NCBI GenBank assembly: GCA_034520885.1
Contig: JAXHNE010000005.1
Coordinates: 77,748 to 141,747, forward strand
Direction of reading: 5' to 3'
Origin: Candidatus Saccharimonadota bacterium
GTDB lineage: Bacteria > Patescibacteriota > Saccharimonadia > Saccharimonadales > JAXHNE01
DNA: 64,000 nucleotides
In this document: positions 4,649 through 30,126 of the stretch, in pieces
How the letters are laid out: the number at the start of each line of letters is the position of its first letter
How positions within the stretch are numbered: the stretch's first letter is position 1
Program-made: the position numbers and the translations under genes
Notes under the pieces: model-generated
Database searches by the model: none
What the model saw: the letters and a program-made list of their open reading frames with translations, nothing else
Told to the model about the DNA's origin: nothing

Positions 4649-5850
4649 TGCATCTTTCCAAAAAACACGTACTGATTGCCTGCGTAAGCGTAGCGGTCGT
4701 TGCCTGCGGTGTTATAGCCGGCACGTATTACCGCGATAACGTAGTTTCAAAATCCCAAGAAGCCGAGCAACGATCCGCGCGGGAACCAACTGTCGAGCCG
4801 CAAAAATCCACCGTCCGTTTGTTGGCGACCGGCGACATGATCGCCCACGATTCCATCAATCAAAACGCCAAACAGGGCGACAAGTATGATTACGCGGCGC
4901 TTATGAGTGACATGAAACCCTACTTCCAAAAGGGCGATATTAACTTTTGTAATCAGGCTACTCCGGCGGGCGGTTCGTCGTTCGGTATTTCCGGATATCC
5001 GATTTTTAACGCGCCGCTCGCGTTTCCCCGCGGTATCGAGGAAGTCGGCTGCAATCTTATAAATATCGGCACCAACCACACCTACGATAAGGGCAAAGAT
5101 TTGGTGGACGCTACCGTCAAAGCCTGGGACGACCGCGACGTGTTGGCCGTGGCCGGAGCCAATCGTAACCAAAGCGAACAAAACCAACCGCGTATTTTCG
5201 AGGTGAATGGGATGACCTTTGCATTCGTTAGCTATACCAACTACACCAACGAACCGATTGCCAACGACTACAGCGTGAATCAGTACTCCAAGGCTTTGGC
5301 CGAGCAACAAATCAACACCGTGCGCGACGAAGCGGATTTGGTTATCGCCAGTATGCGGTGGGGGACGGAGTACGCGGATCGCATAAACGACACGCAGGAG
5401 AAAATCGCCCGGGACTTGGCGAACTTCGGCGCGGACGTTGTTTTGGGGCACGGTACGCACGTGTTGCAGCCGGTCAAAAAACTCACCAGTAATGACGGGC
5501 GTGAAGTATACGTGTGGTACGGCTTGGGGAATTTCCTAAACTCCCAACTGGAAGCCGAGGCCTTAATCGGCGGATTCGCCTCCATGGATATAGACATCGA
5601 GACGGCCAGTATCACCGAAGTCGGTTTTTTGCCGGTGTATCAACACTACGAATGGACGCCCGCGCAAAAAGCGGCGGGTAATTTATTGGCGCGCACTAAC
5701 TTTCGTATGGTTCCGCTGGACGAAGCCGGCGACTTGCTGGCCAAACCCAACGCCCACCTGGATACGAACGTCAAAGCCCAGACCGACCGCGTACGCCAAA
5801 TACTCAACCGCCACACGGACATTCCCATTTTAAAATCTGGGGATTTTTAG
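4648..5850 (+). CDS. CapA/PGA_cap-family protein, membrane anchored
   Basis: Blocks ATGDMIAHDS, NIGTNHTYDKG, LGHGTHVLQP and GLGNF. The ATG overlaps the msrB stop (TAATG). Confidence 0.8.
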   Translation: MHLSKKHVLIACVSVAVVACGVIAGTYYRDNVVSKSQEAEQRSAREPTVEPQKSTVRLLATGDMIAHDSINQNAKQGDKYDYAALMSDMKPYFQKGDINFCNQATPAGGSSFGISGYPIFNAPLAFPRGIEEVGCNLINIGTNHTYDKGKDLVDATVKAWDDRDVLAVAGANRNQSEQNQPRIFEVNGMTFAFVSYTNYTNEPIANDYSVNQYSKALAEQQINTVRDEADLVIASMRWGTEYADRINDTQEKIARDLANFGADVVLGHGTHVLQPVKKLTSNDGREVYVWYGLGNFLNSQLEAEALIGGFASMDIDIETASITEVGFLPVYQHYEWTPAQKAAGNLLARTNFRMVPLDEAGDLLAKPNAHLDTNVKAQTDRVRQILNRHTDIPILKSGDF

Positions 5851-7513: not shown

Positions 7514-8719
7514 GATGTCGGTTCACACCCTGAGCGCCTGAAAGCCGCGTTACTCGGAGTACTGATTTTACTGATTGGCGGCGGGGTGTTTTGGTGGCAA
7601 AACCGGCCTCCCCAAGAAGAAGCTAGTCCTTCCGAGTCGGCCGTGCAGCAACGTACGGAACCGGAAGAATCCACGGTCACCGAATTAAAAGGAAAATATT
7701 TGTTCAGTGGCACCGTAGTACCGGCCCGGGCGGTGGAAAACGAAGCGCGGAGAGCTGACGGCACGGTGGATTACGCACAACCCTTCAGCAAACTCGATAC
7801 CTTTAACCCCGAGCAATACGATGGCTGGCTGATCGACTTTGAATGCCCCATGACCACGGACGACATTCCGTACCGAACCCAGGTGCAAAACACGGTGTTT
7901 AATTGCCCGGACGAGTTCGCTCCGGAAATGGCCGAATATTTCACTCACGCCAACGTGGCCAACAATCATACTCGTGATCAAGGCGATGACGGGTTCACGG
8001 AAACCGTGGAGCATTTGGAGCAAGCCGAAATCCAAACCATCGGCCACTGGGATCCGCGGGAAACGGACGAAATTTGCGAAGTGGTGGAGCTCGGCGTACG
8101 CTTGCAAAAATCCGCTGGCGCGGAAGAGAAGGGAACGCTCCCCATTGCCATGTGCACCTGGCACTACTTTGAAAAGGACGCCACCGACGAAGAGCTGGCC
8201 GTCATGGACGAATACGCCGACATCATGCCGGTGTTCGCGTTCATGCAAGTCGGCACCGAATACCGGGCCGGTCCGGATCAAAAACAGATCGATCTGGCGC
8301 ATCGTTTAGTTGATAATCACGATCCGGAATTTTTAATTCAAAACAGTGCGCATTGGGTGCAAAATACCGAAAGTTATAAAGGCAAACTGGTCGTTTACTC
8401 CACCGGGAACTTCATTTTCGACCAGCTCGACGATGAAACCAACCGCGGGTTAAATATCGAAGCCGAAATGACCGTCCCCTACGATCAAAACGTGCAAGAG
8501 TGGCTGGATCTCGGCAAAACCTGCAAGCCACGCGGTGATAATTGTTTACGAATTGCCCGCGAACTGGGTCTGGAAAAAGTCGATATTTCGCTTAGCTACG
8601 ACGCTATCGGCAGCAGTACCGGCTACCAACGGCTTACCCAAAAAGCCGCTCCGGATTTACAGGCGGCAATCGAACAACGCGCCGATTGGGAAGAAACCAT
8701 CAACGGGCTCAGTAATTAG
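7490..8719 (+). CDS. second CapA/PGA_cap-family protein
   Basis: N-terminal TM segment, plus VANNHTRDQGDDGF and STGNFIFDQ blocks. Same architecture as 4648-5850. Confidence 0.65.
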   Translation: MRAKKYIHDVGSHPERLKAALLGVLILLIGGGVFWWQNRPPQEEASPSESAVQQRTEPEESTVTELKGKYLFSGTVVPARAVENEARRADGTVDYAQPFSKLDTFNPEQYDGWLIDFECPMTTDDIPYRTQVQNTVFNCPDEFAPEMAEYFTHANVANNHTRDQGDDGFTETVEHLEQAEIQTIGHWDPRETDEICEVVELGVRLQKSAGAEEKGTLPIAMCTWHYFEKDATDEELAVMDEYADIMPVFAFMQVGTEYRAGPDQKQIDLAHRLVDNHDPEFLIQNSAHWVQNTESYKGKLVVYSTGNFIFDQLDDETNRGLNIEAEMTVPYDQNVQEWLDLGKTCKPRGDNCLRIARELGLEKVDISLSYDAIGSSTGYQRLTQKAAPDLQAAIEQRADWEETINGLSN

Positions 8720-9045: not shown

Positions 9046-9215
9046 GTATGCACTATGCTCCCTCTAAAAGCGTTTTGCAACCCCGATTAGAGGTTAGTAG
9101 TTAGAGGTTCTAAGCTCTAACTGACCAGCTTTACCCTCAGCTACTTTTTGCATGGGTCAAAAAGTACCCCAAAGTATGTTTTTTCGGAGCAAAGCTTCGC
9201 TTTTGCTTTCCCGAC

Positions 9216-9433
9216 TATCTTTTTGGTTCGGCAAAGAGATAACAAGAAGCCGACAGGCGGCTCCTAAATCGTGACTGGCCGCCACCTCAGGCAAGCAGCG
9301 TGTCCTTTGCGGGAACGACCCTAAAGGGCTCGGCCTTGGCTGCTTTATCTAAAGCAGGCAGCCAAAACTGTCCTCGGACAACGATTCGCTGCTTGCCCGG
9401 GCGTCGCCCAATCAGTTTGAGGAGAGCCTGGAA
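9216..9433 (+). ncRNA. unclassified structured RNA, copy A
   Basis: Shares identical cores with copy B. Four helices differ between the copies by fully compensatory changes (for example 9291-9300 pairs with 9387-9396). No ORF. Confidence 0.65.
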
Positions 9434-9439
9434 CCCCTC

Positions 9440-9650
9440 GCCACCTACTTTTTGCTTATTACTTTCCCCATCTTCCATCTTCTATTTTCCAGCCGCTGCA
9501 TTCAATCCCCATTCCCCAATCTTCCATCTGTCATAACTATCACCTATCATCTATTAATCCTCATCTATCATCTATTGCGACGAAGTCGCTTGCCATCTTC
9601 CAACTACCATCTTCCACCTTCCAGAAACCCCCTAGCCCCTAAACTCTACT
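9440..9650 (-). repeat. inverted copy of the rpoD-type tract (C-poor strand = minus)
   Basis: The reverse complement matches 16860-17045 (GGAAGATGGCAAGCGAC..GTCGCAAT.GATGATAG). Confidence 0.8.
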
Positions 9651-9655
9651 CCCTG

Positions 9656-9729
9656 TATACTGCAAAGCAATGAAGCAAAAAACGTTCCCGCAAAAACTAT
9701 CCCGGGTTGATTTAGGATCTAACTGTTAG
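9656..9729 (+). pseudogene. orphaned copy of the orn promoter plus first ~18 codons
   Basis: TATACT at 9656-9661, then 8 nt, then ATG 9670 giving MKQKTFPQKLSRVDLGSNC stop. Compare real Orn MKKNNKLPTKLFWVDLEMTG. Confidence 0.6.
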
Positions 9730-11328: not shown

Positions 11329-11862
11329 ATGAAAACTTACTACCATGCGGTTCATCCCCCGTATGAAAACGACCGATTAGGTCTAGAATCAATTCGCGAT
11401 GACTTTGAGGCTGATCCGGTCCTTTCGCAAGACAGGGATCGCTTGATTGTTATTGGAGGTGCAAACCTTGTATTGCGTGGCATCATTGATCACACACCAG
11501 ATGTTGATGTGCTCGCACCAAAAACTTTCTTAGAAATCATGGCAATCTATGACCACGTCGAAGAGCTACCCGTACCACGCCGTGCACGGGAGGCAGGAGC
11601 TACCAATACGAGCATTCGCTTTAAAACACAACTGGGTGGTAATTGGGTCTGCGCAACCGATGCACTTGGGGATGGATATTATCCAATGTCTTACGATGGG
11701 CTAAACCAGCAACCTGGATCTACAGAAATGATTGAGGGAGTTCGTTGCTTGTCTTTAGGTAGGGTGATTTCCTCGAAAAGGGCCCTTGGGCGGGAGAGAG
11801 ATCTGGTACATCTCGAAGCCATCAAATACTACCAATCAGAAAATTGGGGTGAACCGTTTTAG
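11329..11862 (+). CDS. hypothetical protein (weak nucleotidyltransferase-fold resemblance)
   Basis: 177 aa. GGANLVLRG...TPDVDVL resembles minimal nucleotidyltransferase motifs, but the call is weak. Confidence 0.45.
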   Translation: MKTYYHAVHPPYENDRLGLESIRDDFEADPVLSQDRDRLIVIGGANLVLRGIIDHTPDVDVLAPKTFLEIMAIYDHVEELPVPRRAREAGATNTSIRFKTQLGGNWVCATDALGDGYYPMSYDGLNQQPGSTEMIEGVRCLSLGRVISSKRALGRERDLVHLEAIKYYQSENWGEPF

Positions 11863-11879
11863 TACGCTACTATTGATTC

Positions 11880-12404
11880 ATGAATCATAAACAAGTTGAA
11901 GAATATGTACTCAGTATGCCAAACACAGTGTTGGATTATCCGTTTGGCGAAGAAGTCGCCGTCTACAAAGTATTTGTTCCTGCAGAGTCCAGCGCCTCGC
12001 ACATGGATGCAGCGCAAGGAAGCAAGGAGGAGCAAGCGAGCCGTACTGGCGGTACGGTGAGTGAGAGACAGACGCCAGCTGACGCAGCGATGCGCCATGA
12101 GCCTGGACGGGCTGCTGGCTCTGCCAGCGGGCAAGACCAGGCGGTGCGTGGCGACTGGAAGATGTTTGCTTTAATTCCGGAAGGCAAGGATCCGGTGCGG
12201 ATTAGCCTTAAGTGCGACCCCAAGCTTTCCGAAGTCTTGCGCGAACGCTACGAAACGGTCATGGAAGGCTATCACCTCAACAAAAAACACTGGAACACCA
12301 TTGTGCTTACCGGCCAATTACCGTGGAAGGACATAGAGGCGTTGATAAATCACAGTTACGATTTGGTCACTAAATCTGGCGGCGAAGTTCCCACGATTGA
12401 ATAA
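11880..12404 (+). CDS. MmcQ/YjbR-family protein carrying a ~55-aa low-complexity in-frame insertion
   Basis: VLDYPFGEEVAVYKV...[insert]...KMFALI...ISLKCDP...GYHLNKKHWNTIVL. Confidence 0.75.
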   Translation: MNHKQVEEYVLSMPNTVLDYPFGEEVAVYKVFVPAESSASHMDAAQGSKEEQASRTGGTVSERQTPADAAMRHEPGRAAGSASGQDQAVRGDWKMFALIPEGKDPVRISLKCDPKLSEVLRERYETVMEGYHLNKKHWNTIVLTGQLPWKDIEALINHSYDLVTKSGGEVPTIE

Positions 12405-12434
12405 ACTGTTATATAACTAGTTATATAACAGTTT
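12403..12434 (+). terminator. 15-bp perfect hairpin after the YjbR-like gene
   Basis: AAACTGTTATATAAC-TA-GTTATATAACAGTTT overlaps the stop codon. The T-run is weak. Confidence 0.5.
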
Positions 12435-12546
12435 ATAGTTGTCAGTGTTCAATTGTCCGTTCTCAGTCTTCAGTGAGCAGATTACGGACACCAAATCACG
12501 GATAACAATTCAAAATATGAAAACTGGCGCCAAACGACTTGATAAG

Positions 12547-12572: not shown

Positions 12573-12669
12573 TTGTTCCGTAACGGAGGAGTAGCGACCG
12601 TAACTATGCAGCTAAAGTTGCAGTTAACTACCAATTATAGAAAGCTGTCTGTTCAGCTTCATCCCCAGC

Positions 12670-12887
12670 AATCTTTTGAGTCGGCAAAAGATTGCAACAA
12701 AAGCCGACAGGCGGCTGCCCGGAACCGGACTGCCCGCAGAACATAAAACGAGTGTGCTTCCTGCGGGAACGACCCTAAAGGGCTCGGCCACGCTGCTTTA
12801 TCTAAAGCAGGCAGCTTAGGCTGTCCTCAAGCAATGACTCACTCGTTTTATGCCCTCCGAACAATCTGTCCGGGCAGAGCCTGGAAG
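12670..12887 (+). ncRNA. unclassified structured RNA, copy B
   Basis: Same cores as copy A. The long-range helix 12742-12754/12840-12852 replaces the copy A helix with an unrelated but complementary sequence. Confidence 0.65.
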
Positions 12888-12989
12888 CCAGGTGAACAAC
12901 TGCTCCAAAGCAGTTGTAACTATATAAAAAACAAGCTTGAAGCTTGTTTACTGGTTTTACCCGGATCACCCAATAAGTTTAAGCAGAGC

Positions 12990-13209
12990 TTGGAATTCCT
13001 TTGTCATTATTTCTCATCTTCATTCTTCAATTCTCATTCCCCGATCTGCCAACTACCACCCACTAACTTCCACCCCCCTAATCCCTATAACCTAGCCACT
13101 AAAACCTAAAACCTGCTTTTAACCTATGAACTATGAACCCAGAACTCTTTCCTCAATCCTCAATCCCCGATCTCCTATCTACTACCTACCAACTACGAAC
13201 TTCTAACTC
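12990..13209 (-). repeat. C-poor (minus-strand) word tract 3' of gene 13210-13800
   Basis: The plus strand is almost G-free, with CCATC, CTAAC and CTACC words. Confidence 0.7.
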
Positions 13210-16830: not shown

Positions 16831-17033
16831 GTTAGAGGGTAGAAGGTGGAAGTTGGAAGATGGTAGGTGGAAGGTGGAAGATGGCAAGCGACTTTGTCGC
16901 AATGGATGATAGGTGAGGATTAATAGGTAATAGGTGGTATGTGGGTGGAAGATGGAATTTGGAAGATAGAAGATGGAAGATGGTAGGTGGTAGGTGGAAG
17001 TTTGGGAAAAAGTAATAAGTAATAAGTAATAAG
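16831..17033 (+). repeat. C-free G/A/T word tract 3' of rpoD
   Basis: No C at 16831-16884 or at 16901-17033. Built from GGAAGATGG, GGTAGGTGG and GTAATAAGT words. The only interruption is the GCGAC-TTT-GTCGC hairpin. Confidence 0.85.
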
Positions 17034-17139
17034 CAAAAAGTAGAGTGTACTTCTACTCGACCCCCCTAACCTCCAACGTCTAACCTCGAGCCTCAAACAT
17101 CTAACTTCCACTCTGATCCTATGATATGATTTTAAGCGA

Positions 17140-28940: not shown

Positions 28941-29016
28941 ACCCCTCAGTGTAGCAGTGGATCAAACGGGGGAGAAGCGGGTACAATGGGAGCATGCCAG
29001 AACTACCGGAGGCTTG

Positions 29017-29082
29017 CCCCGCACCAACTCCTGAGCGGAGCAGTAAGCAATCAGATTGTGGAGCTTCAAGAGTTTGGTGCGG
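29017..29082 (-). repeat. MITE-like hairpin element E3a (inverted relative to E1, 1 mismatch in the core)
   Basis: CCCCGCACCAACTCC...GAGTTTGGTGCGG. Confidence 0.8.
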
Positions 29083-29102
29083 AATACATAGGGAGAATAA
29101 GT

Positions 29103-29219
29103 ATGCCAGAACTACCGGAGGCTTGCCCCGCACCAACTCCTGAGCGGAGCAGTAAGCAATCAGATTGTGGAGCTTCAAGAGTTTGGTGCGGAATACATAG
29201 GGAGAATAAGTATGCCTGA
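29103..29219 (+). other. decoy mutM start opening a 38-codon uORF through hairpin E3b
   Basis: MPELPEACPAPTPERSS.... The TGA at 29217-29219 overlaps the real ATG at 29212 (ATGCCTGA). Confidence 0.65.
29126..29191 (-). repeat. MITE-like hairpin element E3b
   Basis: Identical to E3a, 109 bp downstream. Sits 20 nt upstream of the mutM ATG. Confidence 0.8.
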
Positions 29220-30126
29220 ATTACCAGAGGTCGAAACGGTCAAAAGAGGCCTGGATCAGCTCATCGTTGGTAAGATTGTCGCTGACGTTACTTCCGACTG
29301 GGTAAAATCCTTTCCGAACGCCCAAACTGACGTAAACCAATTTTTAATGGGTGCAACCGTGCAGAAGTTACGCCGCCGTGGCAAGGCGTTGATTATTGAT
29401 CTGAATTCAAAGTATTCGCTCGTCATTCACTTGAAAATGACCGGACAGTTGGTTTTTGTTGGCCAACAAAAAAATGAGCAAAAAGCAAAAAGCAAAAAGC
29501 AAAAAGAGGTAAGATTTGGCGCGGGACATCCGACGGATAGCTTGGTAGGTGAACTGCCCGATAAGTCCACTCGCGTAACATTCACTTTTAAGGATAAATC
29601 TCGATTATTTTTTAACGATCAACGCAAATTTGGCTGGGTCAGACTACTCCCGACTATAGAAATTGAGAACCTGGACTTTATGAAAAAGCTAGGCCCAGAA
29701 CCATTGGAAAATGACTTTACGAACACAAAATTTGTTCAACGGCTACAACGCCGCAAAAACAGTGGTATAAAAGCCGTTTTATTGGATCAAACCGTGGTCG
29801 CGGGCGTTGGAAATATCTACGCGGACGAGTCGTTGTACGCCGCCAAAATCCATCCGGCAACGTTGGTAAAAGACGTTCCCCGGAACGAGTTAAAGGTACT
29901 TTTTAAAGAGCTTATAAAAGTTTTGCGCCGCGCCATAGAAAGTGGTGGCAGTACCGACAAAAACTACGTTGATGCCGAAGGTAAAAAGGGAAGTTATTTA
30001 ACATTCGCTAGGGTTTTCCGCCGGGAAGGCAAGGCGTGTGAACGCTGTGGTGATATCATCATAAAGACGAAAGTCGCCGGACGCGGCACCCACACGTGCC
30101 CGACTTGCCAAAGGAGCCACTCATGA
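29212..30126 (+). CDS. mutM: formamidopyrimidine-DNA glycosylase
   Basis: MPELPEVETVKRGL N-terminus, an H2TH region, and a zinc finger CERCG...CPTCQ. The real start is the third ATGCC(A/T)GAA copy. Confidence 0.95.
   Translation: MPELPEVETVKRGLDQLIVGKIVADVTSDWVKSFPNAQTDVNQFLMGATVQKLRRRGKALIIDLNSKYSLVIHLKMTGQLVFVGQQKNEQKAKSKKQKEVRFGAGHPTDSLVGELPDKSTRVTFTFKDKSRLFFNDQRKFGWVRLLPTIEIENLDFMKKLGPEPLENDFTNTKFVQRLQRRKNSGIKAVLLDQTVVAGVGNIYADESLYAAKIHPATLVKDVPRNELKVLFKELIKVLRRAIESGGSTDKNYVDAEGKKGSYLTFARVFRREGKACERCGDIIIKTKVAGRGTHTCPTCQRSHS

Follow-up and report, generated by a model that had tools for sequence, protein, structure and literature searches.

Saccharibacteria are tiny bacteria whose life is spent attached to other bacteria. 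They and other bacteria of the candidate phyla radiation (CPR) have genomes of about 1 Mb with very little spare DNA, and to our knowledge almost nothing is known of their non-coding RNAs. The locus described here raises the question of what a roughly 220-nt sequence is that occurs twice among the housekeeping genes of such a genome, with the same predicted fold built each time from different stems. The two copies, A (9216-9433) and B (12670-12887), lie 3.45 kb apart, both on the + strand, within the 64,000-nt stretch of DNA that was analysed as a whole (the window). An earlier note on this DNA had taken them for an unclassified structured RNA, either a functional non-coding RNA or the end of a mobile element such as an orphan guide-RNA-like scaffold. 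Judged from their sequences and those of their relatives, A and B are best explained as paralogues that diverged long ago within an unclassified family of structured RNA modules in Saccharibacteria.

A MAFFT alignment of the two copies recovers five identical blocks, and a 28-mer and a 24-mer common to them each have 2 exact matches in the window against 0 expected, so that the blocks and their positions as first described are borne out by alignment and exact-match search alike. The four helix replacements that had been listed between the copies also proved correct on reading the sequence. The 5′ hairpin H0 is ATCTTTTT/AAAGAGAT in A and AATCTTTT/AAAAGATT in B; P2 is CTCCTAAA/TTTGAGGAG in A and CTGCCCGGA/TCCGGGCAG in B; P3 changes from GCAAGCAGCG/CGCTGCTTGC to CATAAAACGAGTG/CACTCGTTTTATG, and P4 from TGTCC/GGACA to TGCTT/AAGCA.

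Copy A runs from H0 to a GAA tail and scores 264.7 bits with the R1 covariance model. H0 itself (AUCUUUUUG / GUUCGG / CAAAGAGAU; 9217-9240) covaries across the family, with 5/8 pairs changed on both sides, and is followed by an A-rich linker (AACAAGAAGCCGA; 9241-9253) whose GCCGA could form a pseudoknot with UCGGC of the H0 loop, a pairing that shows no covariation. The 5′ strands of the closing stem P1 (CAGGC), an internal loop (GG) and P2 (CUCCUAAA) occupy 9254-9268, and those of P3 (GCAAGCAGCG) and P4 (UGUCC) occupy 9291-9305. Between the arms lies an apical domain (9306-9375) composed of the junction GCGGGAAC, hairpins P5 and P6 and CUGUCCUC; its blocks 2-4 are the same in B, and the predicted P5/P6 pairs are invariant between the two copies. 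The return arm contains the 3′ strand of P4 (GGACA), a conserved bulge (ACGAUU) and the 3′ strand of P3 (CGCUGCUUGC) at 9376-9396, then the 3′ strand of P2 (UUUGAGGAG), a loop A, P1 (GCCUG) and the tail at 9416-9433. Copy B scores 270.5 bits with the same model, with H0 at 12670-12693 and P1 at 12708-12712 / 12879-12883. A further hairpin, H-1, precedes each copy on the + strand (CGGAGCAAAGCUUCG then CUUUUGCUUU at 9185-9199 before A; GAAAGCUG..CAGCUUC at 12640-12660 before B), and analogous hairpins are found upstream of most copies of the family.

The absence of an ORF had been claimed as well, and this requires some amendment. Mechanical ORFs do overlap the copies, at 9300-9536 (+), 9287-9478 (-) and 12834-13109 (+). 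None of them is conserved, and A and B differ in reading frame owing to a 1-nt indel located between blocks 2 and 3. Neither a shared ORF nor a hydrophobic peptide was found in 11 copies on either strand, on which ground a type I toxin-antitoxin locus was rejected.

Relatives were sought by several routes, namely a covariance model of A and B, a gapped pattern scan of metagenomes, inspection of flanks, and regular expressions combined with hairpin heuristics. These yielded ten further copies (nine full-length, one decayed), so that the sample comprises 12 copies from about 7 genomes or contigs. The additional sources are two NCBI Saccharibacteria MAGs, one JGI contig with the same gene order, one NCBI genome carrying the decayed copy and three other metagenome contigs. 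Relatives with a common gene order hold L010 (14713-14917, between rpoD and a kinase gene), L012a (5964-5741) and its convergent partner L012b (~5488-5700), L022a (4842-5045) and its convergent partner L022b (5305-5095), and the decayed copy L023 (10938-~11110), which sits in the same spacer as B. From metagenomes come the convergent pair L017a (7934-8142) and L017b (8404-8195), and L015 and L016, one copy on each contig. The metagenome scan with AAGCCGWCAGGCRRYTN{132,162}AGAGCCTG returned three true members together with four chance matches in GC-rich coding DNA. A search with the block-2 18-mer AACGACCCTAAAGGGCTC against 185,579 species genomes found no homologue, giving five chance matches (Myxococcota, Campylobacter). 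Conservation outside the source genome, which the earlier note had left to be checked, is thus borne out by copies in relatives and metagenomes; so far, the family has been found only in one clade of Candidatus Saccharibacteria.

The copies share one plan. Hairpin H0 (YUUUUG...CAAAAR) and an A-rich linker precede the closing stem P1 (CWGGC/GCCWG), which carries a purine internal loop (RR opposite A). P2 begins with CUG/CAG and is followed by an irregular section, with P3 and P4 beyond; the rod from P2 to P4 is 25-45 bp long and nearly all Watson-Crick. It leads to a three-way junction (GCGGRAAC - variable hairpin(s) - RUCCUC), and its 3′ strand carries a bulge, CAAYNAYU, of 6-9 nt. A short tail and one or two downstream hairpins complete the unit.

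Several measures agree on the fold. RNAalifold on A and B predicts 62 pairs, of which 17 have both partners replaced and 0 are broken. Relative to its own shuffles, each copy folds more stably, with z at -3.8 (A) and -5.8 (B). Family-wide, 94% of cells in the curated helices pair within a copy, and the figure falls to 51% if the two arms are taken from different copies; the difference is greater for P3 (97% against 42%) and P4 (96% against 36%). P1 covaries completely (CUGGC/GCCAG in L012a, UCACG/UGUGA in L012b). A further test used a MAFFT alignment, not fitted to the structure, in which 5′ ends were spliced to 3′ ends through an artificial CA spacer. Here, 87.9% of positions pair as against 73.0% in shuffles, none of the 500 shuffles reaching as high a value; 9/18 pairs are changed on both sides, and sliding the partner lowers pairing to 32-54%. 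Covariation across copies therefore shows that the predicted fold of this family is under selection, and the folded non-coding element proposed in the earlier note is real and selected.

The composition of the helices is unusual. Among 240 distinct cells of the curated helices there are only 3 G.U and 5 A.C. Five copies have a conserved A.C in H0, and P1 of L017b has two A.C cells. This G.U count is far below what is usual for RNA, as might be expected if both strands, or single-stranded DNA, were under selection. Moreover, the apical hairpins of A and B are perfectly identical while P2-P4 are wholly different. Template switching within inverted repeats is a known DNA-level process, and long perfect duplexes are classical substrates of RNase III. 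The G.U deficit and the stem replacement could be explained by selection on two strands or single-stranded DNA, by template switching that renews the stems, or by a need for perfect duplexes, for example for RNase III. Scarce G.U pairs and wholesale helix replacement beside invariant loops pose the question of whether selection acts on RNA, on DNA or on both strands.

A lone T-G wobble had been offered as evidence for the + strand. This argument finds no support family-wide, given the 3 G.U and 5 A.C cells, and neither wobble pairs nor folding energies favour either strand. Context does favour the + strand, through downstream hairpins and the geometry of the convergent pairs. A hairpin with a U-rich tail lies 5-18 nt past the closing stem of B, L012a, L015, L017a and L022a/b. 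Behind B there are two hairpins on the + strand (CAACTGCT..AGCAGTTG and AAACAAGCTT..AAGCTTGTTT, then a U-rich tail; 12897-12949), which are likely to mark the 3′ end of a transcript. The hairpin of L017a contains a G.U that would be A.C on the opposite strand. At the centres of the three convergent pairs (L012, L017 and L022) there are hairpins that are terminator-like and do not resemble promoters; one central hairpin, CCATGGAC..GTCCATGG, is common to L017 and L022. A TATACT box resembling a -10 element stands just upstream of L017b, and promoters are unconvincing for most copies. Beyond the L012 pair, hairpin-rich non-coding DNA extends over 5100-5500 of that locus.

Taken together, we tentatively favour, at somewhat less than an even chance, a + strand structured RNA module that is recognised through its junction and closing loop and has been spreading slowly by duplication or insertion. 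The module would be transcribed on the + strand, either together with an upstream gene or from a promoter of its own, and its transcript would end at the downstream hairpins. The product would be a stable RNA, and a lineage-specific partner, most likely a protein, would bind the conserved junction and closing loop. The rod could be a mere spacer, or else a duplex of the kind that RNase III processes. Single copies, convergent pairs and decayed fragments would then result from duplication of the module or its insertion into spacers between genes. The earlier alternative between a functional non-coding RNA and the end of a mobile element is retained in so far as this is a real, selected, folded non-coding element that has no Rfam match and is conserved elsewhere; its guide-scaffold half is not upheld, for reasons given below. 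A folded module of 220-300 nt with several copies per genome would represent either an RNA-protein machine or regulatory device of this lineage, or a new structure-dependent selfish element, and the family lends itself to covariance-model searches of CPR genomes.

The genomic setting bears on how such copies may arise. The first 36 kb of the window are housekeeping sequence (argS, gdh, two PGA_cap genes, orn, yjbR, dnaG, rpoD, polA, fpg, holA and truB), and the oligoribonuclease encoded between A and B matches a protein from a Candidatus Saccharibacteria MAG at 100% identity. Related genomes have the same gene order with tight spacers. Copy A lies inside an insertion of 1.9 kb that separates orn from a PGA_cap gene, with two flanking genes that have no known relatives: the 271-aa neighbour has no homologue in the protein database, and it is unrelated to the 196-aa one. 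Copy B lies where yjbR and a membrane-protein gene are 805 nt apart; in most relatives this spacer measures 0-110 nt. Across five genomes, five spacers of this one conserved gene block are occupied, and six other loci with the same gene order hold no copy. The orn-yjbR region is a hotspot for insertion. No neighbouring gene is conserved across the copies, and no partner protein was found.

Other features of the region were recorded in passing. A DUF6036-like nucleotidyltransferase gene (11329-11862) stands between orn and yjbR; it is missing in the nearest relatives that were sampled, the loci L008-L012, where orn abuts yjbR. In L027, PemK and PIN/Phd toxin-antitoxin genes lie within the same gene block. 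Directly 3′ of the yjbR stop codon is a perfect 36-nt AT-rich palindrome (ATAAACTGTTATATAACT / AGTTATATAACAGTTTAT; 12401-12436). At 28994-29230, a 109-nt unit is repeated 2.2 times at 97% identity and includes the start of fpg (ATGCCAGAACTACCGGAG, encoding MPELPE); this is either a recent duplication of the fpg 5′ end or an assembly artefact. From 36400 to 64000, GC content falls from about 0.50 to about 0.36 and there are only ORFs of at most 211 aa, whether the standard code is used or any one stop is reassigned. Twenty of these ORFs have no match in Pfam, 10 compared with PHROGs gave one weak match, and the segment contains no tRNA and no Rfam match. This gene-poor island of 27 kb beside housekeeping genes is either a foreign or phage-like element or the product of a chimeric assembly.

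An alternative that we regard as possible, though unlikely, is that the copies are old insertions of a non-autonomous mobile element, moving as a unit or as a convergent pair and mobilised by an enzyme encoded elsewhere that recognises the conserved fold, either in RNA or in single-stranded DNA of one or the other strand. The occupation of different spacers of a conserved gene block in different genomes argues for this, as does an 11/14-nt direct repeat around A (left CAGCTACTTTTTGC, 9138-9151; right CACCTACTTTTTGC, 9442-9455; both +). However, eight other copies that were checked have no such repeat. The right repeat of A heads a pyrimidine-rich repeat of ~200 nt (9442-9650) that recurs on the - strand of the rpoD spacer (17043-16840), where it starts with a single uninterrupted CTACTTTTTGC. 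The latter may be an empty site, but its upstream homology is weak and limited to heptamer repeats. Terminal inverted repeats are lacking in single copies; at L022, an identical 28-nt block before each copy forms a perfect 28-bp inverted repeat around the convergent pair, overlapping the TAG stops of msrB and hxlR. Two subtypes can be distinguished, L017b resembling L022a, and L017a resembling L022b and L016; the pair of type 1 and type 2 recurs at L017 and L022, which occupy unrelated genomic positions. Remnants also occur: 29 nt from the 3′ part of a third copy, similar to A (CACCCAATAAGTTTAAGCAGAGCTTGGAA, comparable with 9407-9433), lie at 12967-12995 (+), and L016 has a 50-nt mini-copy (CAGGCTCAC..GACGGGAACTTACAGAGCCTGG; ~720-790) after the full one. 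Helices that are Watson-Crick only, with A.C as frequent as G.U, are expected if both strands or DNA fold.

Against such mobility, there are no near-identical copies, the window holding only A and B with wholly different stems, which implies that any movement is old or rare. Covariation among old copies further implies that each resident copy is under selection. The nuclease, transposase or reverse transcriptase (RT) gene that the earlier note had proposed to look for adjoins none of the 12 copies, and genes for a transposase, an RT or an HUH-family transposase are absent from the about 300 kb examined. Complementarity of A and B to the rest of the window is near chance (17 and 12 11-mer matches, respectively, against about 9.5 expected per query); only the 12-mer at 9683-9694 (-), TTTGCGGGAACG, and the shared pyrimidine-rich repeat stand out. 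This 12-mer is the start of block 2 of A; its - strand copy falls in the 3′ region of the 271-aa gene beside an inverted CTACTTTTTGC-like motif, and may be the remnant of a convergent partner copy. The pyrimidine-rich repeats themselves, at 9442-9650 (+), 16840-17043 (-) and, as a variant, 12990-13209 (+), consist of CCATCTT-type heptamers around a central hairpin, GCGAC(G/A)AAGTCGC, and two of them have purine-rich GAGGTTAG heptamers upstream; a repeat of this kind is unusual for a reduced genome.

A more specific proposal, which we consider distinctly unlikely, is a non-autonomous mobile element of CPR bacteria whose whole ~220-nt fold forms on both strands, be it as RNA and cDNA or as single-stranded DNA of either strand. 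If true, it would explain at once the Watson-Crick-only helices, the renewal of stems, the direct repeat of A, the inverted repeat of L022 and the hopping between spacers. Such an element would be a bacterial counterpart to SINEs, or a structure-recognised element moved as single-stranded DNA.

The module could also act only in cis, as a 3′-UTR or between-gene element that ends, insulates, stabilises or processes the upstream mRNA in the manner of REP, ERIC, BOX or Correia elements or of RNase III stems, with no role in trans; we think this improbable. A gene in the same orientation precedes 9/12 copies, often with no more than 10 nt between its stop codon and the element; among these genes are rpoD (L010), a mazG-like gene (L016), an S41 peptidase gene (L017), and msrB and hxlR (L022). 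However, this proportion does not differ significantly from chance orientation, and A, L015 and L017b have no such gene before them. Convergent pairs between convergent genes, and long duplexes suited to RNase III, are likewise in keeping with a cis element. So is the layout of L010: the element begins 8 nt past the rpoD stop, ends 31 nt ahead of the following gene and lacks its own terminator, an arrangement more suggestive of cis action within a transcript that spans both genes. The unpaired junction bases, asymmetric bulge and purine loop are, on the other hand, too elaborate for a terminator or stabiliser hairpin.

Still less probable, and in our view very much so, is an element of DNA alone, an imperfect palindrome serving as a cruciform or as folded single-stranded DNA, for instance at a single-strand origin or recombination site, without function as RNA. 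The near absence of G.U and the equal frequency of A.C mismatches, together with the A.C conserved in H0 of five copies and the two in P1 of L017b, are what such an element might display. Nevertheless, the sites are housekeeping chromosomal spacers with no relaxase or Rep genes nearby, and hairpins with U tracts occur on one side only. Moreover, blastn of A against 72,556 plasmids and 50,697 phages gave no match, and five pattern scans of IMG/VR found no relative and one chance match.

Finally, an orphan guide-RNA scaffold (omega RNA of TnpB or IscB (HEARO), IS110 bridge RNA or tracrRNA) used in trans by a distant nuclease or recombinase shares with the family its size, multi-helix fold and several diverged copies per genome, and the sequence past the closing stem does differ between copies, but it is scarcely credible here: Rfam, HEARO included, gives no match; no tnpB, iscB, isrB, cas or DEDD recombinase gene and no IS200/IS605 end stands beside any of the 12 copies, whose neighbours are housekeeping genes or have no known relatives; variation falls in paired stems and not in single-stranded loops; and the 3′ tail is short (5-18 nt), varies irregularly and leads directly into a hairpin, the 5′ end being taken up by hairpins.

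With the + strand RNA module still the preferred reading, known families were compared with it. Rfam 15 gave 0 matches over the whole window at gathering thresholds, and at permissive E-values there were only chance-level matches over A and L017 and none in L015 or L016. The earlier note had recognised no conserved core of a familiar RNA class in the sequence, and the cmscan search proposed along with it agrees; literature searches by topic and by sequence string returned nothing relevant. Patescibacteria commonly carry group I introns within tRNA genes (PMC13011429). At the loci studied here, however, ARAGORN found no tRNA in the window or in seven loci even with introns allowed, which excludes such an intron; nor is there an Intron_gpI match even at E<=10, and the flanks are stop codons of protein genes. 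A split tRNA was rejected as well. A retron msr-msd was rejected because no RT gene occurs at any locus examined and the closing stem encloses a single rod. A riboswitch or leader is contradicted by A, B and L012a, which face convergent genes, and by downstream genes that differ everywhere. For the ZTP riboswitch in particular, A has the motif's CGUGACUGG and B is without it, and there is no Rfam match. An integron attC site and a cobalamin riboswitch were also rejected.

Among systems that the family resembles, 6S RNA is similar in its length of about 200 nt, its rod-like closing stem, its sometimes paired paralogues and its occasional processing from the transcript of a neighbour. However, the large central bubble of 6S RNA has no counterpart here, where a near-continuous rod (almost continuous in L022a) leads to an apex with a three-way junction; the genomic positions of the family are not conserved, there is no Rfam match, and 6S RNA was rejected. 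BOX, ERIC, Correia and REP/BIME elements are likewise intergenic, often located past stop codons, made of long hairpins, variable in presence between genomes and found as fragments and composites. They differ in having many similar copies and simple hairpins, whereas the family described here is deeply diverged with covarying stems, combines a conserved three-way junction with an asymmetric bulge and a distinct 5′ hairpin, and as a rule has no terminal inverted repeat or target duplication. Omega RNAs of TnpB/IscB and IS110 bridge RNAs are of comparable length, have a stem-loop at the 5′ end ahead of a long stem interrupted by internal loops, and occur as diverged paralogues; in contrast to them, the family has no nearby effector gene and no apparent single-stranded programmable segments, and its short 3′ tail is followed by a hairpin. 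The raiA motif, HEARO and ROOL differ from it in that the family has no match in Rfam 15, is confined so far to Saccharibacteria and is unusually poor in G.U; HEARO, with which it shares the presence of several copies per genome, goes with IscB, whereas the family has no associated ORF. In common with all three, it has a function not evident from sequence, a length of at least about 200 nt, several helices, strong covariation and conserved unpaired bases.
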